IMG/VR virus record: IMGVR_UViG_3300025133_000029
Location: 32,001-96,000 of that record
Length of the DNA: 64,000 nucleotides
Direction: 5' to 3' (one strand)
Source: a virus
Part shown: positions 6,916 to 63,032 of the stretch, one piece after another
How the letters are laid out: each line of letters begins with the position of its first letter
How positions within the stretch are numbered: position 1 is the first letter of the stretch
Made by a program: the position numbers and the translations under genes
The notes under the pieces: generated by a model
The model's input: only the letters and a program-made list of their open reading frames with translations
The model's database searches: none
Told to the model about the DNA's origin: nothing

Positions 6916-8868
6916 GTGTCTCGGCAGGTTTATTTTTTCTCTTTTCGGAATGTGCTTTGTTTTGGCGATGTAGAAGTTCATCTCGATGATTCGGGTGGGG
7001 TTGTTGGTGTTTTTGGGGAGAGTGATGATTCATCTGCTTTTGATAGTAATGGGTCGGGGAAAACATCGCTTTTAGAGGGCATATACTGGACGCTCTACGG
7101 TGTAACGATAAAAAAGCGGCTAGCCGACGAGGTGATACGCTGGGACTCCACAGGCGGGGCTTGTGGGGTTGTTCGCGTTCGTACCCATGATCGAGATTTT
7201 GAGATTTGCCGATATCGTCGTGACCCAAAATACAAAAATGATCTGATCTTACGGGAGAGATTGGATGGTTCTTGGGTTGATATTTCTGGAGAAGAAAAGA
7301 AAGACATCCAGAATAAGGTTTGCAAGGTATTGGGGATATCTGCGAAGCTCTTTATGCAGATTGTTTTCTTTGGTCGTGACCAGAGATTCTCCAGCTTGGG
7401 AGACGCTAAACAAAAACAACTTATTGAAGAGGTTTTGGGTGTCGATATTTATGAGAAATCTGCACAGGTCGTTCGAGGGAAAGCGAAATCTATTCGTGAT
7501 GATTTGGAAAAAATAGAAATTAGGATAGAAGAGCAAGATAAGTTTTTAAGGTCTTTGCGCGAACGAGTTCAAGAGGGAAGGTTGGCAAAGCAGCGTTGGG
7601 AGATAGATTTTGAATCGAGGGGAGACAGGCTCAGAAAAACAATAGAGGATCTTGATGTAAAATTGTTTGAGATAGACAGGGAGCGAAAGAGGGATGTGTT
7701 CGGTCCTGGCTTAGGTCCTCTTTCGCATGATCCTCTCTTGGAAGAATTGGGGGATGTGAGAAGTAGAGAATCGGAAGTGGGAGTATCTGAGAGTCGGCTC
7801 TCTGTGATGTATCATGCTCAAAGAAATGATTGGATTAGAGAGAGAGGTCGGTTACAGGGGACGAAAGACTCAATCAACAGACAGCTGGATAGAATCAAAA
7901 GCCTAATAATGCAGGGTCGCTGTGTTTCATGTGGTCAAACCATTTCTGAGGGCTATGCTCAAGAAGAGTCAACTGCTAAAAACGAAGAGTTGTTGGCGAC
8001 TAAAAATCAATTGTCTGATGTTTCTAAAAATCTGGGTATGTGGGATGAGGCGATGATGCTTGAGCAGTCCAAACTTCGTTCAGAAAGAGAGGAGCTTGAA
8101 AACAGGAGGGTTGCTCTGGAGTCTCAGATTGGAGCAATTGAGAAGCAGCAGTCTCGTCTAGAGCATCTTGATTATCAATATGAAGATGCTCTAGCTAGAA
8201 GAAAGGATACAGAAAGGAACTTAGCTCTTTTGGGAGATGGTCTATATCCATATCTTTCCAATCTGGAGAACGTGGAAGAAGAGTTGTTATCAGCAGAGGA
8301 AGTGCATAGGGGTACGAAGGAATCTATTGATCAATTAACTTTATTGTATTCAAAATACAAAGTCTTAGAGGGTGCCTTTGGAACAAAGGGTATTAGATCG
8401 TATCTAATGGAATCTTTTTTTCCAGAGTTAAATAGAAGGCTCAGTTACTATTCGGACATCTTGAGCAATGGGCAGATGTCTGCCTATTTTTCAGCTTTAT
8501 CAACTAACTCAAAGGGTGAGGAGACAGATGGAATTAGCTTGCGGGTGGTAACACCTCGAAGGGAGGTAGGTTATGACTCTGGAAGTGGTGGAGAGCAAAC
8601 AAGATTAGATTTACCGATCATCCTGGCCCTGCAAGACGTGGCAGCGTTGCGAGGAGTTTCTCTGGGATTCTGTGCATTTGATGAAGTTTTTGATCGAATG
8701 GATAAGTCTGGGATTGATGGTATTATGGAAACGTTGCAAGATGCATCGACTAGACCACACACTCCTAATATTTTTGTAATTACGCACAAGGATGATCTAG
8801 CTCTTCGATTCTCTCGGAAAATTATTGTATCTAAGAAAAAAGATTGCACTTCTTTGCGCAATGGGTAA
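6916..8868 (+). CDS. sbcC: Rad50/SbcC-like SMC ATPase (T4 gp46-like)
   Basis: Walker A NGSGKT, coiled coils with Zn hook CVSCGQ, signature SGGE, Walker B FDEVFD, H-loop ITH. Confidence 0.9.
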   Translation: MSRQVYFFSFRNVLCFGDVEVHLDDSGGVVGVFGESDDSSAFDSNGSGKTSLLEGIYWTLYGVTIKKRLADEVIRWDSTGGACGVVRVRTHDRDFEICRYRRDPKYKNDLILRERLDGSWVDISGEEKKDIQNKVCKVLGISAKLFMQIVFFGRDQRFSSLGDAKQKQLIEEVLGVDIYEKSAQVVRGKAKSIRDDLEKIEIRIEEQDKFLRSLRERVQEGRLAKQRWEIDFESRGDRLRKTIEDLDVKLFEIDRERKRDVFGPGLGPLSHDPLLEELGDVRSRESEVGVSESRLSVMYHAQRNDWIRERGRLQGTKDSINRQLDRIKSLIMQGRCVSCGQTISEGYAQEESTAKNEELLATKNQLSDVSKNLGMWDEAMMLEQSKLRSEREELENRRVALESQIGAIEKQQSRLEHLDYQYEDALARRKDTERNLALLGDGLYPYLSNLENVEEELLSAEEVHRGTKESIDQLTLLYSKYKVLEGAFGTKGIRSYLMESFFPELNRRLSYYSDILSNGQMSAYFSALSTNSKGEETDGISLRVVTPRREVGYDSGSGGEQTRLDLPIILALQDVAALRGVSLGFCAFDEVFDRMDKSGIDGIMETLQDASTRPHTPNIFVITHKDDLALRFSRKIIVSKKKDCTSLRNG

Positions 8869-8919
8869 ACATAGGATGGGTCTAGGGGTTTTCTTTTATA
8901 TATAAAGAGTTGATGAGAA

Positions 8920-10107
8920 ATGAAAATTACAAGAAATAAGGTGGAGTTGAGTCTACCAAGACTTACATCTTTGGGTGAAGAGTTTGACCTTCCCGAAAGT
9001 CATTTCACACCAGGAACAATTGGACGCGTTTCTCAAATAAAGGGTCAGTCTGCGGGAAAAACGCATGTTATTCTTGATATAGTTGGTGGCAGAGCATTGT
9101 CATCACCAAGAGTGCAGGGTTCTGGAAATAATCAATATGAACAGGAAAGAGATAGACGTCCTCCGCAGATTGATATTTCAAGAATGCCAAATATGACTCC
9201 TCGTGATCGCTTTATGAATGGGACACAGAGGTTGGAAGGGGATGGTGGGACTCCTGTTTTTGCGTCTGGTGATCCTAGACCAAGAACAGGCCCTAACAAT
9301 CAAATTGTACAAAACTCTCCAGGAACGATAGACAAGTCGCTGGCGAATCCACTGGCGCAAGAGTTAGTGGCTGGGATGTTGGGTGGAGGTATGCAAGGGC
9401 AAGCAGTACCAGTCTCTCAAGAAGAGGCAGAGGCGAGAGGTTTGGTTGGGGGGGAGGAGGTTTCTCAACCAACTATTTCACACGACAATGCTAAACAAAG
9501 ATCCCAGGAGCAGAACGAAGCGTGGGCAGCGTCTGAATTTGGTATACAGGTAACTCGAGAACAAAAAAGCACTAGAACAAGGGGTGGGAGAAGAAAAAGT
9601 AGGTACTCTTCTAACTTTGTGGTTGGTGACGATGGTGATTACTTAAGACACCCAGATGGTTCGGTCATTAGACAGGAACAAGACGGGATTAGGGCATTGT
9701 CGAACTCTGGGGTTGGAGGGATACGTCCTCCACAGGCTAAAGAAGTTCAGGAACAATTTGTGCAGCAGGACATTCAACGTAGGAAGGCAAGTAAAAGTGA
9801 GGATGGGGCGCAGGTAAAATTTGAAGAGATGCCCGAGATGGACTTACTTGATGATCCTGAAGCATTGGAGAATTTGTTGTCGACTAATCCGGCAGGAGGA
9901 ACTTTGATTCCGGGTGTTCAGGGTGGGTCTGGCATTATAACAACAGGCAATGCTCATGTAGAGAGATCGCCTGTCAGTAATGTTCAAAGACAAACTCCCT
10001 ATCCTATTCCTCCTCATATGCAAAATGTTCCCCCTCCTTCACAACAGTTCTCTGGAATGATCCCGTTAGTCCCTGCTAATCCAGACAATAATGGAATGAA
10101 TAAATAA
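8920..10107 (+). CDS. low-complexity Gln/Gly/Pro-rich hypothetical protein
   Basis: 395-aa ORF; stop overlaps the next start (TAATG). Confidence 0.65.
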   Translation: MKITRNKVELSLPRLTSLGEEFDLPESHFTPGTIGRVSQIKGQSAGKTHVILDIVGGRALSSPRVQGSGNNQYEQERDRRPPQIDISRMPNMTPRDRFMNGTQRLEGDGGTPVFASGDPRPRTGPNNQIVQNSPGTIDKSLANPLAQELVAGMLGGGMQGQAVPVSQEEAEARGLVGGEEVSQPTISHDNAKQRSQEQNEAWAASEFGIQVTREQKSTRTRGGRRKSRYSSNFVVGDDGDYLRHPDGSVIRQEQDGIRALSNSGVGGIRPPQAKEVQEQFVQQDIQRRKASKSEDGAQVKFEEMPEMDLLDDPEALENLLSTNPAGGTLIPGVQGGSGIITTGNAHVERSPVSNVQRQTPYPIPPHMQNVPPPSQQFSGMIPLVPANPDNNGMNK

Positions 10108-10772
10108 TGTTTACTCATGTTTTCTTTGAGCCTCCTGTAGCTTGGGGACGTCCGCAATACAACAGAAGTTTGGGTATTTTTTATCCCCATAAGCCGTCTC
10201 AGAAGTTTGGTGAGCGTTTAGCAGAAGATGTTCTTTCATCTTTTGATCCTTCAGAGATAGAGCTTCCTCATTTTGAAGCAGGGAGACCTTTGGGAATAGA
10301 TTTGGATTTTGTATTGCCTCGTCCAAAGTCACTTAGGAGAAAAAAAGACCAGGGTGGTTTAATTTGGTTTGGGAAATCCAAGAAAAATGACTTGGACAAC
10401 TTAATTAAAGCTGTGTGGGATGGCTTGTCTAAGGTTATGTGGGATGACGATGGCAGGTTGGTGCAGAGTCGTTCTCGTAAGTTTTATGCAGAGAAGTGGG
10501 GTGCCCCTCGAATTTGTATGCGTGTGTACTACATGAGAGAGGAGCCGGTATTCTTGTGTACTGATTATGGTTTCTCTGAAGGATCCTGGGATGAATCTTT
10601 AGACTCTAAAGATTTTCTAATGATTGATGAGCCTTGCGAACAAGGTAAAGAGAGTTTAGTATTATCTAGAAATGAGGATGGCCATCTAGTTATGCCTCCA
10701 AGAGATTCTAGAGAATATGATGAGCTTCTTTGGTCTTTTATGAGATCGAGGTCGGGAACATTAAATGATTAG
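10107..10772 (+). CDS. rusA: RusA-family Holliday junction resolvase
   Basis: PRPKS...KNDLDNLIKAVWDGL...WDDD catalytic motifs. Confidence 0.85.
   Translation: MFTHVFFEPPVAWGRPQYNRSLGIFYPHKPSQKFGERLAEDVLSSFDPSEIELPHFEAGRPLGIDLDFVLPRPKSLRRKKDQGGLIWFGKSKKNDLDNLIKAVWDGLSKVMWDDDGRLVQSRSRKFYAEKWGAPRICMRVYYMREEPVFLCTDYGFSEGSWDESLDSKDFLMIDEPCEQGKESLVLSRNEDGHLVMPPRDSREYDELLWSFMRSRSGTLND
10594..10614. repeat. dispersed palindrome copy 2 (in rusA, encodes SLDSKD)
   Basis: AATCTTTAGA-C-TCTAAAGATT. Confidence 0.95.
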
Positions 10773-10978
10773 GATTTTTTAGCAATGAAGAGAAAAAATA
10801 GTTCCTCAAAAGGGTCTGATGCAACTAAGGCTTCTAGTGGTTCGGCGAATAAATCCGGGGAGAGCTTTTCTGCTAATTCGGGAAGTCCTCCGATCATACC
10901 AACATGCGCGTCGTGTTCACAATTGCTTACATCTTGTCGGTGTAAAGATAACAATTTGCAGAAGTAGGGAGAGGGGCT

Positions 10979-12703
10979 ATGTTGGGGAGTGCTCCGACTC
11001 CAGAGTCTGATCGTATTGTTCTTGATATTCCGCCGCACATTATGCGCAAGTATATGGAGCGGCGTTTGTCTTTGTGGGCAGAATTTTCAGGAATATATGT
11101 CGATAGGCGTCGTTTTTCTTTTGATGGTCATCAGTATTTGATGCCATTATTTGATGATAGATCGGAGCATATAGTGTTACTGAAGGCAGCTCAGATGGGT
11201 GCCACTGTTTACATGCTCGTTAAGGCGTTTCACATGGCTCTGTACCCACAGAGTTGGGGTTTTGATATTCCGATAAAGATCGGCTTTTATTTTCCCGAGG
11301 CGAGGGGGATTGGGCGAATAGTAAGAGACCGGGTGCAACCTATGTTGGAGTCCTGTTCTGATTTGCGTCCCTACTCAAGAGAAGCACGCCTGGATCTAAA
11401 GCCGGTTGGAAACTCGACTTTGTATTTTCTTTATATGGGTGGTCGGTCCTCCAAGGACTCGGTTCCTCTTAATGCTCTATTTATTGATGAGGTTCGACTC
11501 GTTAATTTACACGATGTTCATCAAACAAATTCTCGACTTTTGCATAGTAAACCCTATAAATTTAAAAATTATGTCTCTACGGCAGGGATGCCTAATAGCG
11601 ACATACATAGACTGTTTTTAAACACAGATAAAAAATGGTTTCATACTATTTGCCAACATTGCGGGACGGAGCAAATTCTTGCACAGGAGTTTCCTGAGTG
11701 CATTGCGGTTCCTGCACCTCACAGCACAGTCCAAGAATATTACTATATCTGTAAGAAACCAACCTGTCGGGGAAGGATAGAAGATAATCAGTTTGGAATG
11801 TATATAGCGGAAAATCCTGGACATGAGTATTCTGGTTATCACATAAGTCAGCTTATTTCTTATAATATTACGCCAAAAGAAATTTGGGAAAGATATAGAG
11901 ACACTACAGATTTCAAAGGTTTCTATAACGATATTTTGGGTCTTCCTTATGTTGATACAAAAAACAAACCAATATCGTTGGATATGCTTGATGATTTTGT
12001 AAATCCTTTCTTGGAGTGGGGCGACAAGTGTGGTGGTCCATACTATGCAGGAATCGATCAAATGATGGGCTACAACTACATGTTTATCATTGAACGACCC
12101 GCGGATAAAAAGTGGAGAATTGTTTGGTTTGAAATCATAGAGGACGAGAAACCATTCAGACGCTGCGCGGAGTTAATGGAAGAGTTTGATGTTCGTGTTT
12201 GTTTATGTGATGCACTTCCGAACGCCACAGAAGCTCTAGAGTTTGCAAATCATTTCAATAAAAGAGTTTTCTTGGCTTTTTCAGGTCAGTTTAAGGACCC
12301 CATAAGCTGGGAGGACGATCACAAGACGAAGAAGAAGCACAAAAAGGCTTCTCCTGAGACGTTTGGCAAATACAAAGTTCTTATAGATGCTTATCAGAGC
12401 TTGGATCATACATTGTCTCGTTTAGGAGAGGGTTGTGTGGAGTGGCCTGATCCAAGAGGACATCTTATTTCTTGTCACCCTTACAACGGGGGGCGCGTAG
12501 ACCATTATCCGATTATGGAGACCCATGCTTATCATCACTTTGATTGCCCGGTAAGAGAGCGTGTTCTTATAGAAGAAGAGACCGGAAAGTCGAGGATGCG
12601 ATGGAACTTTGCAGGGATACAAGATCCGCATGCTCTTTCGGCTTTCAATCTTGCTATGTGGGCATCAGAGAGAAAGAAGAGTACTTTTTCATTTTCATTC
12701 TAA
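10979..12703 (+). CDS. terL: terminase large subunit (GpA-like)
   Basis: Walker A KAAQMGAT, Walker B LFIDE, motif III VSTA, Zn-finger insert, FYNDILGLPY, nuclease YAGID and C-terminal DPH. Confidence 0.85.
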   Translation: MLGSAPTPESDRIVLDIPPHIMRKYMERRLSLWAEFSGIYVDRRRFSFDGHQYLMPLFDDRSEHIVLLKAAQMGATVYMLVKAFHMALYPQSWGFDIPIKIGFYFPEARGIGRIVRDRVQPMLESCSDLRPYSREARLDLKPVGNSTLYFLYMGGRSSKDSVPLNALFIDEVRLVNLHDVHQTNSRLLHSKPYKFKNYVSTAGMPNSDIHRLFLNTDKKWFHTICQHCGTEQILAQEFPECIAVPAPHSTVQEYYYICKKPTCRGRIEDNQFGMYIAENPGHEYSGYHISQLISYNITPKEIWERYRDTTDFKGFYNDILGLPYVDTKNKPISLDMLDDFVNPFLEWGDKCGGPYYAGIDQMMGYNYMFIIERPADKKWRIVWFEIIEDEKPFRRCAELMEEFDVRVCLCDALPNATEALEFANHFNKRVFLAFSGQFKDPISWEDDHKTKKKHKKASPETFGKYKVLIDAYQSLDHTLSRLGEGCVEWPDPRGHLISCHPYNGGRVDHYPIMETHAYHHFDCPVRERVLIEEETGKSRMRWNFAGIQDPHALSAFNLAMWASERKKSTFSFSF

Positions 12704-34789: not shown

Positions 34790-34810
34790 TTTTCAACATG
34801 TCCAAATACT

Positions 34811-34856
34811 AAAAAAAAGGGAAATCTTTAGAATCTAAAGATTTCCCTTTTTTTTT
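34811..34856. terminator. long hairpin (22-bp arms) flanked by A8/T9, possibly a bidirectional terminator, centred on a palindrome copy
   Basis: AAAAAAAAGGGAAATCTTTAGA-A-TCTAAAGATTTCCCTTTTTTTT. Confidence 0.6.
34823..34843. repeat. dispersed palindrome copy 10
   Basis: AATCTTTAGA-A-TCTAAAGATT. Confidence 0.95.
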
Positions 34857-51738: not shown

Positions 51739-53157
51739 CTAGTTTTTTTGTGTTTTTGGCACCGGGACAATTGGAATGGACTCTGCTTTAGAATCTTTAG
51801 AGTCTAAAGATTCTTCTTCCAGAATCTTTCCTTGCTCGTCGAATTCTATATCGACGGGTGTTATATCGGATAATTCTCCAGATATGAGGTGTGGCTCAAT
51901 TCCAACTCGTTTCATTCTGTCGAGAATAATGGCTCCATATCCAGGATCAAGCTCTATCCCATATCCTCGGCGACCCGTGCTTTCTGCGGCGATAAGAGAA
52001 GTGCCGCTTCCCAAGAAAGCATCGTATACAGAATCTCCGGGGTTTGTGTGGTTTTCTATAGGTCGGCGCATGCATTCTATTGGTTTTTGTGTTCCATGAC
52101 CTGTTTGTTCGTCGAGTTCGTCATTTCCTCCTCCAAAGGCAGCCAGATTTCTTATTTCCCAAACATTTGATTGTTTTCTTCCTCCCTGCCAATTTGCGCT
52201 CTTTCCCTTTCTTACTGCATACCAAGCCATCTCATATTGTTGGTGGTAGTGACTTCTTGAGAATGCAAAGTGTTGCTTTTTCCAAACAACCATTGTTCTT
52301 GGTATAAAGTTGCAGTCTCGCAGTCCATCCATAATAACATCGGTAAATATGGCGGCGTGCCATACATAGGCAACATCTCCGGGAAAGAGTTTATATGCAT
52401 CTCGCCAGTCTGCTATGTGGTCATTAGCGACTTTTCCAGTAGATCGAACATTTCCTCGCATTGTGTCAGCTTCATTTCTCCATCCCGGATCATAGTTCAC
52501 TCCGTAGGGAGGGTCGGTAACCATAAGGAGTGGAACTTCACCACCAAAGAGAGTACTTACGGCTTGAGGATCTGTTGAAGATCCGATCATGAGTCTATGG
52601 TCACCGCATTGCCAGAGTTGTCCTAGTTGAGTTTTCCATTCGCGTTGCATGTCCTCTCTGGGGTCAAAGTCTTGTCTGTTTTCTTCATCACGGACATTGT
52701 TTTTCTTTTGATCGATTTTGACGCCTTGAAGGATTTCTCGGAGGTCTTCGGTTTTGAAACCTGTTCCTCTTAGTTTTATTGCGCTTTGTTTTACGTTCTC
52801 GAGTATTTCTGAAAGTATTTTATTGTCGTACGTTGCGATGTCAGATGTGCGGTTATCGGCGAGGAGTATTCGGAGAGCTTGGTCATCATCTACGTCTATA
52901 AATATAACGGGGACTTTAGTTTCTCCTTCTTCCAGGAGAGCTTTGTATCTGTGGTTTCCAACAAGGATGAAATTTGTTGTTTTTTGAACAATCAATACGC
53001 CATAGAAACCATTAACTTGAAGGCTTTCGCGTATGAGGTCGATGTTTCCTTTTCTTGGGTTTCTTGGGTGAGTAAACACTGAATCAATGGGAACTTCTTC
53101 AATAGAAGATCCATCATTCAGGAAGTGTATTTTTTGTTCTTGCTTGATTTCTTCCAT
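51739..53157 (-). CDS. ParB/Srx-domain fused DNA methyltransferase (N4/N6 family)
   Basis: HPRNPRKG...GNHR ParB-like N-terminus; TDPPYG, HGTQKP, YDAFLGSGT, GIELDP. Confidence 0.9.
   Translation of the reverse strand: MEEIKQEQKIHFLNDGSSIEEVPIDSVFTHPRNPRKGNIDLIRESLQVNGFYGVLIVQKTTNFILVGNHRYKALLEEGETKVPVIFIDVDDDQALRILLADNRTSDIATYDNKILSEILENVKQSAIKLRGTGFKTEDLREILQGVKIDQKKNNVRDEENRQDFDPREDMQREWKTQLGQLWQCGDHRLMIGSSTDPQAVSTLFGGEVPLLMVTDPPYGVNYDPGWRNEADTMRGNVRSTGKVANDHIADWRDAYKLFPGDVAYVWHAAIFTDVIMDGLRDCNFIPRTMVVWKKQHFAFSRSHYHQQYEMAWYAVRKGKSANWQGGRKQSNVWEIRNLAAFGGGNDELDEQTGHGTQKPIECMRRPIENHTNPGDSVYDAFLGSGTSLIAAESTGRRGYGIELDPGYGAIILDRMKRVGIEPHLISGELSDITPVDIEFDEQGKILEEESLDSKDSKAESIPIVPVPKTQKN
51792..51812. 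repeat. dispersed palindrome copy 16 (in MTase CDS, encodes SLDSKD on the - strand)
   Basis: AATCTTTAGA-G-TCTAAAGATT. Confidence 0.95.
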
Positions 53158-57233: not shown

Positions 57234-57380
57234 TTTCTACGGTGTTTTGTAAGCCCAGGTTAATAGCCCAGGTGAATGAGTGTCAAGCGTGAGTTTTGTA
57301 TAAATGATGGATAATTCGTTTTTCGAGTGATGTTTGTGTTGTTATTTTGTGTGCTTTCTTTATAGGTGTTTTATTTAGAT

Positions 57381-58520
57381 ATGAACAAGAAAACATTGCC
57401 ATCTCCTCCTCTCCCATCTCCACCACAGCCTCCCTCGGTGTCTTCGCGCGGTGTTCTGCCAAGTCCTCCCCTGCCTTCTCCACCATTACCACCAATTGTG
57501 CCTTTTGTTCCACCCTCTCCTCCTGTTTCGAATGTGGGTGGTATGGGAGTTTTCTTTAAGGTTCCTCGAGGTGTTGAAGTCGATGATGCTCCTGTTGGTG
57601 GTGATCGTGTTTTGTTTTCTCCACAAGTGAACGAGGTTCCTGTGGAGAAGTTGGGATTGGCTCCTATCCCTCCAAAGCCATCGCCACCGAGTCCCATTGA
57701 TTTGGTTTCTTTGGATAGGGGTTCTCCAGAGCCTAAAGGCTTTGCGACCCTACCAAGGCCATCGCAAGATGGAGATAGTGGGGTGGCGGGACATTTCACT
57801 TTCCCGGTTGGGGGAGGAAGAGTTGAGGTCGCACCCAAACAAGAGGATTCGTATGTAGTTGAAGAGTATGTGAGTTTGAGCGAGCAGATAAAGAGAAGTC
57901 TTGTTTCCTTTGATGGAGATAAGACAATGATGATTCTAGGAAATCGTCTAGATTCTGAATCAACCTCTTCTCATATTTTGAACATGCTTAGGGGGAGTGG
58001 TTTCCCCCCTACTCCAACACCTTATTTCCCCTCTGATATGACGTACAAGCCATCTCATCACGAAGCCTTATTGTCTCTTCTTGGTGTCACTAATTTATTG
58101 ATCGTCTGTATCTGTTCTCCGAAGAATAGAGATCTTGGTAAGTTTCGAGTGACTTCAAGATTCTCTTCAACCCCTTTTCCACCAGATCATATTTCAAAAC
58201 ATGGGATGGCTTGTTACCACAAGGCATTTGAATTGAACGTCCCTCGCATATGGGTGGACTTGGACAAGGATCCGATCGCAGCAAGGAATTATGTAGAGGA
58301 TTCTATTTCTTTGTGTCTGAGTCTAGAGGAGATGGTTTCGGATATACCATTTACGCAGCAGCACCCTCTTGCGCCACAGACTTTGTCTCGTCTGTATCAC
58401 AATCCTGATTTGGGATCTTTTACAATTCTTGTGGTGGGACCATCGATAGAGCATATGGGGGGAGAGGAGGCTTTGAACCCTGTGGTGGGTGGGATACTGG
58501 GGGCGTGTCTTCCTTTCTAG
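57381..58520 (+). CDS. proline-rich N-terminus plus globular domain
   Basis: LPSPPLPSPP repeats; long ORF. Confidence 0.6.
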   Translation: MNKKTLPSPPLPSPPQPPSVSSRGVLPSPPLPSPPLPPIVPFVPPSPPVSNVGGMGVFFKVPRGVEVDDAPVGGDRVLFSPQVNEVPVEKLGLAPIPPKPSPPSPIDLVSLDRGSPEPKGFATLPRPSQDGDSGVAGHFTFPVGGGRVEVAPKQEDSYVVEEYVSLSEQIKRSLVSFDGDKTMMILGNRLDSESTSSHILNMLRGSGFPPTPTPYFPSDMTYKPSHHEALLSLLGVTNLLIVCICSPKNRDLGKFRVTSRFSSTPFPPDHISKHGMACYHKAFELNVPRIWVDLDKDPIAARNYVEDSISLCLSLEEMVSDIPFTQQHPLAPQTLSRLYHNPDLGSFTILVVGPSIEHMGGEEALNPVVGGILGACLPF

Positions 58521-58919: not shown

Positions 58920-58940
58920 AATCTTTAGAGTCTAAAGATT
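58920..58940. repeat. dispersed palindrome copy 18
   Basis: AATCTTTAGA-G-TCTAAAGATT. Confidence 0.95.
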
Positions 58941-59501: not shown

Positions 59502-60212
59502 TTACTTATCTTTATCTGTGAAAGTATCTTCTGGATCAAGAGAGAATGGTCGTGTGTGTGGCATTGGCATTGGGGATTCATCATTTTCTTGATCGATGAA
59601 TCCGGGTTGTCCCTTTTGAACTGCGGGTTCTATATAGTGTATGTCTCTACCGCGCATAGCAAGAAGTTGTTCTGATTTCATCCCAACTCGTAAGGATAGA
59701 ATTTGAGTTGCGACAGCTTCCAGATTCTCTTCACTGAGTTCGGCGTGGAGGTGAGCATGTCTTACTTCACCCTCATGCTTAACCGAATGTTCGATCCGCT
59801 GTGGGGTTTGGTGGATGGCATTGCAGTCTTGGAGGATTTTTGTTTCTCTCAGACGAAGCTCCGATATGAATTTGAGACACCTGATCCGGTCACTTACCTT
59901 ATTAGCACTTTGGAAGTCTGTCCATGCCTCTTCTCTCATTTGAGCAAATTCGGATCTAATCTCTCCCAGGTATGCGTTCTGGTCTATAGATTCTACGCTT
60001 TGAGAGGCAGAGTCTCGATAAGCTTTTATGTAATTGTAAACAGTCTTTCGCGAGACATTTAGTATTTGAGCAACCTGACTAACTGTGTACCCACGAAGCC
60101 TCATTTGGTAGGCTTGCCATATCTTCTCTTTTTTAGACTCTTCGTCTGGGTTGTACTCGACAATTGTAATAGGAAGCCCATCACTTCCACGTTTAATCAT
60201 CTCGTTGCTCAT
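59502..60212 (-). CDS. HTH protein, possible terminase small subunit
   Basis: AYQMRLRGYTVSQVAQILNVSRKTVYNYI followed by helical region; GAGGA RBS. Confidence 0.5.
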   Translation of the reverse strand: MSNEMIKRGSDGLPITIVEYNPDEESKKEKIWQAYQMRLRGYTVSQVAQILNVSRKTVYNYIKAYRDSASQSVESIDQNAYLGEIRSEFAQMREEAWTDFQSANKVSDRIRCLKFISELRLRETKILQDCNAIHQTPQRIEHSVKHEGEVRHAHLHAELSEENLEAVATQILSLRVGMKSEQLLAMRGRDIHYIEPAVQKGQPGFIDQENDESPMPMPHTRPFSLDPEDTFTDKDK

Positions 60213-60302
60213 ATAAACCGTTCCTCTATTTATGTAGAAAATCCACTACGGATTATTTTTCTAGGAGAATTATATCAATAAACTTCATGTTTGATAAACA
60301 AA

Positions 60303-60323
60303 AATCTTTAGACTCTAAAGTTT
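60303..60323. repeat. dispersed palindrome copy 19 (upstream of parB)
   Basis: AATCTTTAGA-C-TCTAAAGTTT. Confidence 0.9.
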
Positions 60324-60531
60324 TTTATGTTTGGGGCTTGAGTTTTTTTTATATGAGAGTATCTTGTTTTTTCCGCATCTCCGAGGAGCAGAGGTTTTTT
60401 AGTATGATCTCGGAGTTCTGCTCTATTTCTTTCTAGTAATTGGCGTAAATGCTTGGCTTTCTACAGGAAAGAAGATCAATTTTTTATTATTGCGAGGTGC
60501 CCTTGTCGTCTAATCATTAAGGAGATTGAGT

Positions 60532-61884
60532 ATGACGGTACAGAACGAAACCGAAGAAATTGTCCAGACCAACACCGAAGAAGAAGAAGTCGAAGAGACC
60601 GGAACCAAGGCGAAGAAGAAAGGCTCTTCCAAGAAGAAGTCCGGAGCGAAGAAGAAAAAAACTGGTGGCAAAAAGAAAGCCGCTTCCTCCAAAAAGGGAG
60701 GGGGCAAGAAAAAAGCTGCGGCTAAGGCAAAAACCGTTGAGCCTGTGGTGGTTGTTCCTCCAGAAGAAGGAGCCGATGAGTCTCAGCAAGAGGGCGAAGT
60801 GATCGAGGCGGTTCGGGAGCTTGAGTCTCGAAACATGGATCCTCGGTTGATTACCTACCCGCAGCGATTCAAGAACTCTCGGATGAAGCCAGACCCTATC
60901 CACCTTCGCGATCTCAAGGCCAGCGTCAAGCGAAACGGGATCCTGACCCCTCTCATCGTCTGGGAGATTCCTGACGAATCTCAGGAGTCCGGTTTTCGCC
61001 ACGACATCATCTCGGGGTTCAGCCGCTTCAAGGTCATCAATGACTTGATCGCGGAAAATGAACTCAGCTTCTCGGAAATCCCCATCAGAATCTATCGCGG
61101 CAACATCGCGGGTGCGGCAGAGATCAACTTTGCCGAGAACCTGCAGCGCAAAGATCTCTCGCCCTTTGAAATCTGTATGTATCTTCAGTACATGCGAGAG
61201 GAAGTGGACATCAAAAGCACCGACCTCGCCTTGATCGTAGGCAAGTCTGAGGCATGGGTTTCGGTCGCTCTGAAGTTCATGGACAACGCGATCGGTGAGC
61301 TTCAGAAGGTCGTCGAAGAAGGAAAGATGTCCTACTCCTTGGCTCTCGATGTCTCTGGCTTCGAGCCGCATGTGCAAGGAAACTGGGTTGACGCCTACCG
61401 AAAGACTCTCGCCACGAGCGGAAAGAAAAGCGCGGTGCGGGAGGCCAAAAAGAAAGCAGGGAAGGCTAAGAAGAAAAAGAAAAAGCCTTCGGACGCTTAC
61501 CTTCCCCCCGAGACAGTCGTTGCCACGTTCAACTCCTATTACGATATGGAACTGGACACCTATGACGACTTGGTCAAGTCCTACCTCTTCGGCTTGATGG
61601 CAGGCATGGCCCACTGCCTGGGCTATGACGTCAACCTGACCCAAATCGAGAGACCGGACATCGGAAACATCAACGTCAAAGATCTCCCCCTCCTTCAGGC
61701 GACAGAGGACGATGGAGAGGGCGAAGGTGAAGGCGAGTCGGCAGAAAGCACCTCCGAAGGTGAGTCGGCAGAAGAGTCCACTGAGGTCGTTACCGAAGAA
61801 GAGACGACGGAAGAAGGCACCGAAGCCGAAGCCGAGTCGACAGAAGAATCTACCGAAGCCGAAGCCGAAGGCGAAGAAGAGTAG
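60532..61884 (+). CDS. parB: ParB/Spo0J-family protein with Lys-rich N-terminus and acidic C-terminal tail
   Basis: LKASVKRNGILTPLIV, IISGFSR, AENLQRKDLSPFE, HTH DLALIVGKSEAWVS; AAGGAG RBS; strong GC3 codon bias. Confidence 0.85.
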   Translation: MTVQNETEEIVQTNTEEEEVEETGTKAKKKGSSKKKSGAKKKKTGGKKKAASSKKGGGKKKAAAKAKTVEPVVVVPPEEGADESQQEGEVIEAVRELESRNMDPRLITYPQRFKNSRMKPDPIHLRDLKASVKRNGILTPLIVWEIPDESQESGFRHDIISGFSRFKVINDLIAENELSFSEIPIRIYRGNIAGAAEINFAENLQRKDLSPFEICMYLQYMREEVDIKSTDLALIVGKSEAWVSVALKFMDNAIGELQKVVEEGKMSYSLALDVSGFEPHVQGNWVDAYRKTLATSGKKSAVREAKKKAGKAKKKKKKPSDAYLPPETVVATFNSYYDMELDTYDDLVKSYLFGLMAGMAHCLGYDVNLTQIERPDIGNINVKDLPLLQATEDDGEGEGEGESAESTSEGESAEESTEVVTEEETTEEGTEAEAESTEESTEAEAEGEEE

Positions 61885-61928: not shown

Positions 61929-62450
61929 CTATCCTTCCTCTTCCCGTTTTCTCGGGATATCCCCCAACCACATCTTGATCTGATATTGTGATTCGCCGAC
62001 GTGCTTTGCATCAGCCGGATTCAAGAACTCTTGTGAGAGTCGAAGTTTGTTCGGTGCCTCTTCCAGGTTGAATGCAAAGTGATAATATCTTTCACTGGAG
62101 AGTCGACCCTTGGGAAAGCCATAGGATCTTTCTAATTTTCGAATATGGTCTGGATCCAAAACACCAACAAGAGCAATGAGTCTCTCATTGCGTAGATCTA
62201 TATCAGAGATTTCATCTGCGGTAAGCTTCTCTCTGTATCCATACCAAATTGGATATTTGTTTGTCATACACTCAGCAATGCGCCACTCCTCACCGCTGAT
62301 GCTTCGTGATTCGCGCATCGCGACTTCAAGAGATTCGCGGCAAGCAGCGCTCTCAGCCACTCGAGCGCGTTGTCGTTCCTCTTGCTCTGCTCTTCTTCTT
62401 GCCTTACGCCGTTCTCTGTTTTTATTCTTCTTCTTTTTGCCTTTTCTCAT
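61929..62450 (-). CDS. basic hypothetical protein
   Basis: ORF following 62457..62972. Confidence 0.5.
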   Translation of the reverse strand: MRKGKKKKNKNRERRKARRRAEQEERQRARVAESAACRESLEVAMRESRSISGEEWRIAECMTNKYPIWYGYREKLTADEISDIDLRNERLIALVGVLDPDHIRKLERSYGFPKGRLSSERYYHFAFNLEEAPNKLRLSQEFLNPADAKHVGESQYQIKMWLGDIPRKREEEG

Positions 62451-63011: not shown

Positions 63012-63032
63012 AATCTTTAGAGTCTAAAGAAG
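63012..63032. repeat. dispersed palindrome copy 20 (divergent intergenic region)
   Basis: AATCTTTAGA-G-TCTAAAGAAG. Confidence 0.9.

Follow-up and report, generated by a model that had tools for sequence, protein, structure and literature searches.

What reads a palindrome that recurs about every 3 kb along the genome of a large phage? The question is raised by the locus of a parB-type gene in the window analysed here, a 64-kb stretch comprising bases 32001-96000 of the linear 161,002-bp IMG/VR virus record IMGVR_UViG_3300025133_000029 (the whole record is termed G000). The record is ~68% complete by CheckV estimate. It contains a large terminase, an SbcC-like nuclease and further phage genes that mark it as a tailed phage, and the terminase is ~30% identical to those of 90-kb myoviruses. 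We infer that the ParB protein encoded in the window is the best candidate reader of the palindrome array, with a probability of roughly 55%. The system is of the kind formed by KorB and its operator OB, or by Noc and its binding site (NBS), in a variant carried by a large phage.

The palindrome has the form AAATCTTTAGA-S-TCTAAAGATTT and spans 25 bp. Exact copies of CTTTAGANTCTAAAG number 20 in the window, where 0.01 is expected, and 52 in the record, in which degenerate copies are confined to two with one mismatch and one with two mismatches overlapping an exact site. Information reaches 12 nt per half-site (TCTAAAGATTTt) with a smooth outward decay, and no further motif stands at a fixed distance from the palindrome. 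A fixed promoter architecture was rejected, because there is no information past 12 nt from the centre and sites occur in every type of gap. Forty-five of the 52 copies are intergenic (29 in co-directional, 9 in divergent and 5 in convergent gaps) and seven lie inside genes; on a rough gene map, roughly one intergenic gap in four bears a copy, and the share rises to 41% for divergent gaps. The mean spacing is 3.0 kb, with a coefficient of variation of 0.52 compared with 0.90 for random intergenic placement (none of 5000 trials was as even), and the largest gap, 7.3 kb, is below expectation as well. No other ParB-type palindrome was found in the record, whose only other repeated palindrome forms 10-bp GCTAGC tandem arrays near the right end. 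Avoidance of a GANTC restriction site was rejected as an explanation, since the record holds 794 GANTC sites, slightly above expectation. Among ~185,000 bacterial species-representative genomes the palindrome is dispersed in none and gives three single matches only, so an origin of the motif in host genomes was rejected as well. In these respects, the site looks like one at which a dimer of high specificity would load.

The exact 19-mer is found in just two further IMG/VR contigs, which overlap each other: G001 (IMGVR_UViG_3300006923_000020, loci L009-L012; 65.9 kb, 16 copies) and G002 (25.4 kb, 7 copies). A looser motif scan of IMG/VR returned, besides these two, only single chance matches among the matches listed. 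Beyond the palindromes, neither contig has detectable DNA or protein similarity to the record, and ParB is absent from both. They encode portal, tail sheath, baseplate and fibres, all missing from the record, and their tetranucleotide usage correlates with that of the record at r 0.96, above the value for the record's own two halves. They probably represent the missing structural third of the same lineage. The alternative that they are unrelated phages carrying the motif without ParB was rejected, given the complementary structural genes and the tetranucleotide agreement. Because the contigs are read as the missing module, their lack of ParB tests nothing. On that reading, with G001 counted as the same lineage, the array comprises at least 68 sites over at least 227 kb. 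Over 68 copies, the centre base is C in 33, G in 30, A in 3 and T in 2.

The parB gene and the palindrome copies around it are arranged as follows.

58923-58937, no strand: palindrome copy 18, from the motif scan.
60303-60323, no strand: palindrome copy 19 as a 21-mer, with core CTTTAGACTCTAAAG at 60306-60320 and centre at 60313, in the divergent intergenic region between a helix-turn-helix (HTH) gene and parB.
60519-60524, plus strand: ribosome-binding site AAGGAG, 7 nt ahead of the ATG, read directly from the sequence.
60532-61884, plus strand: parB coding sequence, 450 aa plus stop (ATG at 60532, stop at 61882-61884), from the open reading frame (ORF) and the sequence.
60532-60843, plus strand: disordered N-terminal region, aa 1-104, acidic, then Lys-Ala-Gly-rich, then acidic; from composition, with a predicted local distance difference test score (pLDDT) <50 over aa 1-76.
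60844-61146, plus strand: ParB N-terminal domain of the nucleotide-binding type, aa 105-205, with FKNSR, GILTPLIVWE, GFSR (box II) and ENLQR (box III); from Pfam ParB_N, pLDDT >90.
61147-61416, plus strand: HTH DNA-binding domain, aa 206-295, with recognition helix GKSEAWVS; from Pfam HTH_ParB and hhalign, pLDDT 95-98.
61417-61494, plus strand: second Lys-rich linker, aa 296-321, net +11; from composition, modelled partly as helix and partly with low confidence.
61495-61626, plus strand: clade-specific C-terminal two-helix element, aa 322-365, with helices 326-337 and 346-362 at pLDDT ~90; conserved in relatives P0004-P0012.
61684-61881, plus strand: acidic Glu/Ser/Thr tail, aa 385-450 (66 aa), net -29; from composition, pLDDT <50.
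63015-63029, no strand: palindrome copy 20, from the motif scan.

In the ORF list the gene starts at TTG 60526 (60526-61884); the AAGGAG stands 7 nt before ATG 60532, a spacing that favours this start, and the product is therefore 450 aa long. The G+C content at third codon positions (GC3) of parB is 0.653, against a genome mean of 0.447 (sd 0.097) and 0.39-0.50 in its neighbours. This places parB third among 152 genes, most of the remaining GC3-rich ones being located in the right-hand cassette region. The 21-mer of copy 19 ends 209 nt ahead of the ATG, and its right flank reads TT where the consensus has AT. The ParB motifs are FKNSR (aa 113-117), GILTPLIVWE (136-145), SGFSRFKV (161-168), ENLQRKDL (202-209) and GKSEAWVSVA (237-246). 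In phmmer alignments with Noc, Bacillus subtilis Spo0J and Caulobacter ParB, the box II segment GFSR(FKV) stands opposite GERR(xRA). Along the protein the net charge alternates as -8, +19, -8, core, +11, -5 and -29: the N-terminal acidic blocks (aa 1-27 and 76-104) flank a block with 20 Lys and Arg at aa 28-75, and the tail at aa 385-450 contains 29 Asp and Glu, 16 Ser and Thr and not a single Lys or Arg. These results confirm the features seen in the sequence-only reading of this stretch, which had described a ParB/Spo0J core with an HTH between a Lys/Ala-rich segment, a second Lys-rich linker and an acidic tail, a GFSRFKV box II, a strong ribosome-binding site, GC3-rich codons unlike those of the neighbours and a palindrome copy ~210 bp upstream. 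Its suggestion of a site about every 3 kb extends to the whole record.

Both Pfam domains are detected below their cut-offs, namely ParB_N at aa 117-205 (E 2.6e-4, 21.4 versus 26.3 bits) and HTH_ParB at aa 207-277 (E 2e-4, 21.9 versus 22.6 bits). The protein also matches the PHROG for ParB-like partition proteins (E 9e-15) and NCBIfam TIGR00180 (E 1e-12, under its cut-off). The closest solved structures by phmmer are Noc (7nfu, E 6e-8), B. subtilis Spo0J (6sdk) and Caulobacter ParB (6t1f), with E-values ranging to 1e-6. An AlphaFold2 model built with 96 homologues has pLDDT >90 at aa 110-310, and aa 1-85 and 380-450 are disordered. Foldseek assigns the model a probability of 1.0 to ParB, Noc and KorB structures, the best superpositions being 1vz0 (TM 0.68), chain B of the KorB-KorA-DNA complex 8qa9 (TM 0.65) and 6t1f (TM 0.64). 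The closest predicted viral structures are numerous phage 'Spo0J/ParB' proteins; moreover, the nearest clusters in the ESM Atlas are chiefly viral, and 45% of the members of the top cluster have a KorB domain. Judged by profile and predicted fold, the protein is a genuine ParB/Noc/KorB-fold member of the ParB/Spo0J superfamily.

An exhaustive HMMER search of 1.84 billion representatives gave 4594 ParB-family matches, among which just nine proteins (P0004-P0012) are close relatives, at 30-37% identity. In a word-indexed search of 5.8 billion proteins, the ParB protein matched nothing but itself, on nine contigs. The contigs of P0004-P0012 were not found in IMG/VR, and a metagenome scan for relatives gave only distant ParBs among the matches listed. 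The clade shares FxNSR, PLIVWE, GFRR, ENxQREDL, GKSPxWVS and a C-terminal YGxxxALxWAL element. Lys-rich N-termini are also present in three relatives (P0004, P0010 and P0012), and the long acidic tail is absent from all nine. Among the best 150 matches, box II reads GFRR in 32 and GERR in 24, and the only GFSR is that of the phage protein studied here.

The site itself points to a reader of this family. RK2 KorB binds the operator OB, TTTAGC(G/C)GCTAAA, at 12 copies over ~60 kb (PMC13768133). The phage core TTTAGA(S)TCTAAA agrees with OB at five of the six positions of the half-site, namely 2-6 counted outward from the centre, and shares its register, its odd geometry and its G/C centre. This resemblance in sequence and register argues for a ParB-family reader of the palindrome. 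In addition, a Pfam census of 149 ORFs of 50-400 aa from the record gave as DNA-binding matches one HTH protein, one HU-like protein and methyltransferases including Dam. The HTH match is the neighbour of ParB at 59502-60212, because the best E-values are identical. Neither Cro/CI-type nor ribbon-helix-helix proteins were found in this census, in which many ORFs are without a Pfam match. In the record, only ParB and the HTH protein encoded divergently from it carry a sequence-specific DNA-binding domain recognisable by Pfam.

The likeness to KorB goes beyond the half-site TTTAG of an odd-centred palindrome. Both proteins combine a ParB-fold N-domain and an HTH with a disordered N-terminus and linker (PMC11790492, PMC13768133), and box II lacks the glutamate in both (GARR in KorB, GFSR in the phage). 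In each case the sites are scattered over the entire replicon at intervals of kilobases, with 12 in ~60 kb of RK2 and 52 in 161 kb of the phage, and in both some sites are promoter-adjacent and others remote. However, the phage has no IncC/ParA partner and no recognisable clamp-locking KorA or TrbA (the Pfam census recognised no KorA-like protein among the record ORFs), its protein ends in the two-helix element instead of KorB's C-terminal domain, and it adds an H1-like Lys-rich block and the 66-aa acidic tail. In box II, the phage protein has Ser for the first Arg. The replicon is a large tailed phage without sign of lysogeny, not a plasmid, and its sites are ~5 times as many and more evenly spaced.

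Noc of B. subtilis, with ~70 NBS, is likewise an orphan ParB paralogue without ParA, and it is the best PDB match of the phage protein. It loads at many dispersed 14-16-bp palindromes and then spreads, as is proposed here for the phage ParB. The NBS differs in being an even palindrome of another sequence (ATTTCCCGGGAAAT type), and Noc carries a membrane-targeting N-terminal helix and acts on the cell, by nucleoid occlusion of cell division. No such amphipathic helix is predicted at the N-terminus of the phage protein, whose first 85 residues are modelled as disordered and are arranged in charge blocks. The Noc-like character suggested by the sequence-only reading does not hold as family membership, since the score with the Noc equivalog model TIGR04285 is 45.7 bits, below the cut-off of 315. 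Its statement that the window has no ParA is confirmed and extends further: neither ParA (PF13614, PF01656) nor tubulin of the TubZ or PhuZ type (PF00091) was found in the 161-kb record or in the 66-kb contig G001, with the same search matching control genomes. The phage protein also lacks [LFI]G[KR]G[LFI], which a survey of orphan ParB-CTPase-fold proteins gives as the N-terminal ParA-binding motif (PMC12704722). The phage ParB is an orphan without a partner, and its features differ from those of a canonical ParABS system.

Stoperators of Cluster A mycobacteriophages offer a third comparison. In these phages dozens of copies of one 13-14-bp site lie mostly in short intergenic gaps and are read by a phage-encoded DNA-binding protein for genome-wide transcription control (PMC9283540, PMC6550527). 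Stoperators are asymmetric and orientation-dependent and are bound by the monomeric immunity repressor of temperate phages, whereas the phage studied here has a perfect palindrome, a candidate ParB-fold dimer as reader and no lysogeny genes that could be found. As with proteins covered by the orphan survey (PMC12704722), the gene lies outside a parAB operon on a mobile element, and its product lacks the ParA-binding motif. VirB and BisD are described as ParB-like transcription regulators working via DNA clamps (PMC10770331, PMC12409273). A phage-wide even site array and this pattern of charge blocks are not described in the accessible parts of the reports on these orphan proteins, VirB and BisD.

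The nucleotide pocket was compared with that of Caulobacter ParB, in which the class I CTP-binding residues are R60, S74, G79, R103, R104, N136 and R139, and Ala mutants of these lose CTP binding (PMC8367383). The residues were mapped through the phmmer alignment (chain number + 10) and a profile alignment. Six of the seven are kept in the phage protein, as R117, S131, G136, R165, N203 and R206. In place of the catalytic Glu, Caulobacter E102, stands Phe163; KorB, with Ala there, is nevertheless an active CTPase (PMC11790492), and the phage protein retains a counterpart of KorB R117, a residue required for CTP binding. Sequence comparison suggests that the pocket is conserved across the clade and weakened in the phage protein. 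According to the survey, the ParB fold can bind ATP or GTP as well (PMC12704722), and some phage ParBs function without NTP-binding residues (PMC13229309).

Several observations weigh against this ParB as a KorB-like clamp that reads the array. The seventh class I position, equivalent to R103, is Ser164, at a site where 85 of 96 homologues have Arg and where the R103A exchange abolishes CTP binding of Caulobacter ParB (PMC8367383); clamp behaviour is uncertain because this CTP-contact arginine is replaced. No Pfam match to a C-terminal dimerisation domain of the PF23552 type was obtained for the protein, so a closed clamp is not assured, and the two-helix element at aa 322-365 may be the dimerisation element. 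The match to the KorB family PF08535 (E 0.067, 13.6 bits) falls short of the cut-off of 22.3 bits, which speaks against membership at the family level, and phmmer to RK2 KorB (8qa8) gives E 0.12 only. The helix KSxxWVS is widespread among mobile-element ParBs and not specific to KorB; the protein therefore appears to belong to this broad mobile-element branch and not to KorB itself. By rough estimate, the match to OB has a chance of ~0.5% for one known site and of ~5% family-wise over ~10 known ParB-family sites. Moreover, the copy upstream of parB is weak evidence alone because many gaps carry one, and the seven intragenic sites together with the occupation of all gap types make a purely promoter-linked role unlikely.

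When the clade profile is aligned by hhalign to a true KorB homologue (locus L122, described below), the probability is 97.4% and E 1.4e-11, with GKSEAWVS opposite GKSKAWVS. This significant alignment would reflect superfamily kinship, not KorB membership. Ser269 is placed by the profile alignment opposite the residue equivalent to KorB Thr211, which is a lead. Thr211 and Arg240 of KorB are reported, by Khare et al. (2004), to determine operator specificity; a prediction of the specificity of the phage protein from them was dropped.

If ParB is the reader, a dimer would dock via its HTH on the 25-bp palindrome, of which the phage has at least 68 copies, one about every 3 kb. The N-domain might then close over the DNA, with or without nucleotide, and the protein might depart from the site and spread over 1-2 kb, as KorB and ParB do. 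With even spacing, the spreading zones would overlap, and the whole phage chromosome would be marked or coated. More speculatively, the Lys-rich blocks could add non-specific DNA affinity, and the acidic blocks could temper it or bridge molecules.

The output would likely be genome-wide transcription control or insulation; the phage DNA might also be physically organised or protected. The record has 45 occurrences of a promoter-like motif of the form gTTCAc-n4-TATAAAAAAGCAGAGCATTTAC, which almost all share one orientation and lie mostly at G000 131000-161002. At eight copies elsewhere, the palindrome centre lies downstream, exactly at +25 or +38 from the start of AGCATTTAC, which is an operator-like position. 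Given these eight sites, a KorB-like transcription role fits at least as well as the compaction by charged tails that the sequence-only reading proposed. A tentative and rather unlikely extension is a chromatin-like layer, in which the at least 68 even loading sites recruit a partner-less ParB clamp, the H1-like block and the acidic tail bridge or condense the DNA, and the chromosome is coated, self-marked and silenced or shielded during infection. If true, this layer would be a virus-encoded, genome-wide counterpart of KorB or Noc. At G000 157374-160890, several promoter-like copies are followed by 10-bp tandem arrays with a GCTAGC core (GGGCTAGCGG / GGGTTAGCTA), which could be iterons, packaging signals or end-related repeats.

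The reader may be another protein, and the product of the gene divergent from parB is the main rival. Three features concern this side of the locus.

59502-60212, minus strand: HTH_23/Terminase_5-type protein of 236 aa, divergent from parB, Pfam HTH_23 E 7.6e-9.
60269-60297, minus strand: sigma-70-like promoter for the HTH gene (TTATCA, 17 nt, TG-TATAAT; 10 of 12), from a consensus match only, 6 bp from the 21-mer.
60445-60475, minus strand: copy of the promoter-like repeat (...AAAGCCAAGCATTTAC on the minus strand), one of 45 in the record and the sole one near parB, pointing from parB through the palindrome to the HTH gene.

It is unlikely, in our estimate, that the palindromes are read by this neighbour, an unrecognised phage protein or a host factor and that ParB does another job. 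ParB might then recognise some other site, switch on a DNA-modifying enzyme in the manner of the ParBs that accompany phage T-dioxygenases, or cooperate with the fusion of ParB_N and a methyltransferase encoded at 51739-53157. The neighbour has a clear HTH, shares the intergenic palindrome with parB and is present as an identical sequence on nine contigs, the same number as ParB, with which it could also act as a partner; a homologue search with it returned only itself. Half-sites of 12 nt with A/T-rich outer parts would also suit HTH dimers of the Hin/resolvase type. The neighbour matches in addition the terminase small-subunit family PF06056, whose members normally act at one packaging site, and the KorB-operator likeness of the site points to a ParB-family reader (PMC13768133). 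Most ORFs are without a Pfam match, so unrecognised DNA binders may exist. A host factor accords poorly with a motif that is dispersed in none of the bacterial species genomes searched. Phage ParB homologues with roles other than segregation, independent of NTP-binding residues, have been published, but the T-dioxygenase-associated ones are without a DNA-binding domain, whereas the phage protein has a confident HTH (PMC13229309). A GANTC core stands at the centre of every site and the phage encodes N6/N4 and Dam methyltransferases, but GANTC is not otherwise special in the record, given its count only slightly above expectation.

That fusion gene (51739-53157, minus strand) holds the second ParB_N domain of the phage, joined to an N6/N4 DNA methyltransferase (PF01555, E 1e-21), and a palindrome copy lies within its 3' end, at 51795. 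The GANTC core is the target of CcrM-type enzymes of the methyltransferase family to which the fusion belongs, and methylation of the sites is conceivable.

The palindromes could also act as hairpins, namely as bidirectional terminators, attenuators or RNA-processing sites unrelated to ParB, a reading that we consider improbable. It would agree with the intergenic position of 45 of the 52 copies, with the A-run at the left and the T-run at the right of the consensus, and with a modest co-variation of the left and right flanks (positions 9-10, p 0.002-0.008). At 34810-34856 of the window, a copy forms the tip of a perfect hairpin with a 21-bp stem and flanking A- and T-runs (-24.6 kcal/mol), resembling a bidirectional terminator. 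Another long palindrome of this kind is present at G000 10041, and a few copies tip such long terminator-like hairpins. However, typical copies fold only to -5 to -9 kcal/mol, no Rfam family matches the palindrome, and some copies are located in promoter regions between divergent genes or within genes. The invariance of 14 bases over 68 copies and the near absence of degenerate versions are more than structure by itself can account for, and an over-even spacing is unexpected for terminators. Classical partition of a plasmid-like prophage, with ParA in the missing part of the genome or supplied by the host, is very improbable: plasmid-prophage N15 does have dispersed centromere sites and the record is incomplete, but ParA, integrase and tubulin were not found in 227 kb of the lineage (no tyrosine integrase in the record), the protein has no ParA-binding motif, at least 68 even sites far exceed centromere needs, and the 66-kb contig fills most of the estimated gap with structural genes only.

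Of the ParB-encoding phages compared here, the one under study has the array of highest density and also the largest genome. At least three copies of a single palindrome are present in 10 of 100 ParB-containing IMG/VR loci and in 2 of 64 control loci, both of the latter being artefacts; the control locus L212 was rejected as a palindrome carrier, being a coding repeat. The Noc-site-like palindrome TTTCCCNNGGGAAA is dispersed in 3-6 copies in each of five records of 16-47 kb, with a control pattern giving no matches, and GTTTCGCATGCGAAAC reaches up to five copies in 10.7 kb. The palindrome-bearing ParB loci are L077, L085, L096, L097 and L102 (records G005-G009), and also L076, L086 and L098. 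ParA lies within 10 kb in only 3 of 104 such ParB loci. Across the other phage loci, palindrome type follows ParB sequence group; since members of a group are also related to one another, the pattern does not count as independent covariation. Orphan ParBs accompanied by ParB-family-type sites at kilobase spacing are thus encountered repeatedly among phages.

The true KorB mentioned above belongs to a 46-kb provirus (L122, IMGVR_UViG_3300013810_000004), where it stands behind ParA/IncC at 7523-11019 (8qa8, E 1e-50; C-terminal DUF7673). Three RK2-type OB sites, TTTAGCSGCTAAA (GTTTAGCSGCTAAAC), surround the KorB-IncC pair. Our search of the literature found no published phage-wide ParB site array.

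CTP switches of the ParB family have been described in the segregation of chromosomes and plasmids, in Noc and in a small number of regulators (KorB, VirB and BisD), and phage genomes are rich in orphan parB genes. The array reading, if true, would give such genes a concrete job, and a whole viral chromosome would be controlled or organised from one repeated loading site. The protein would moreover be a natural experiment on the effect of disordered charge-patterned tails on a ParB clamp and on the dispensability of the nucleotide switch, given the Ser at the key Arg position. Although the phage is uncultured, the modest size of the protein and of the 25-bp site makes them accessible to direct biochemistry.

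Convergent with parB, an ORF of 173 aa (61929-62450, minus strand) begins with an extremely basic N-terminus rich in Arg, Lys and Glu (KKKKNKNRERRKARRRAEQEERQRAR) and has no family match. Further upstream, the ORF at 57366-58520 (plus strand) has a Pro-rich N-terminus with repeated PSPPLPSPP units, also without a family match. GC skew on the plus strand is positive, strong and sustained (0.1-0.3) over almost the whole window, matching its mostly rightward genes. The Pfam census of the record further includes the translation initiation factor IF3, Cpn10, the HU-like protein and a ThiF-type enzyme, together with Dam, RusA, a NYN nuclease, a PP2C phosphatase and ATP-grasp (R2K) proteins. Contig G001 carries an ORF of 2655 aa at 57721-65688 on the minus strand.

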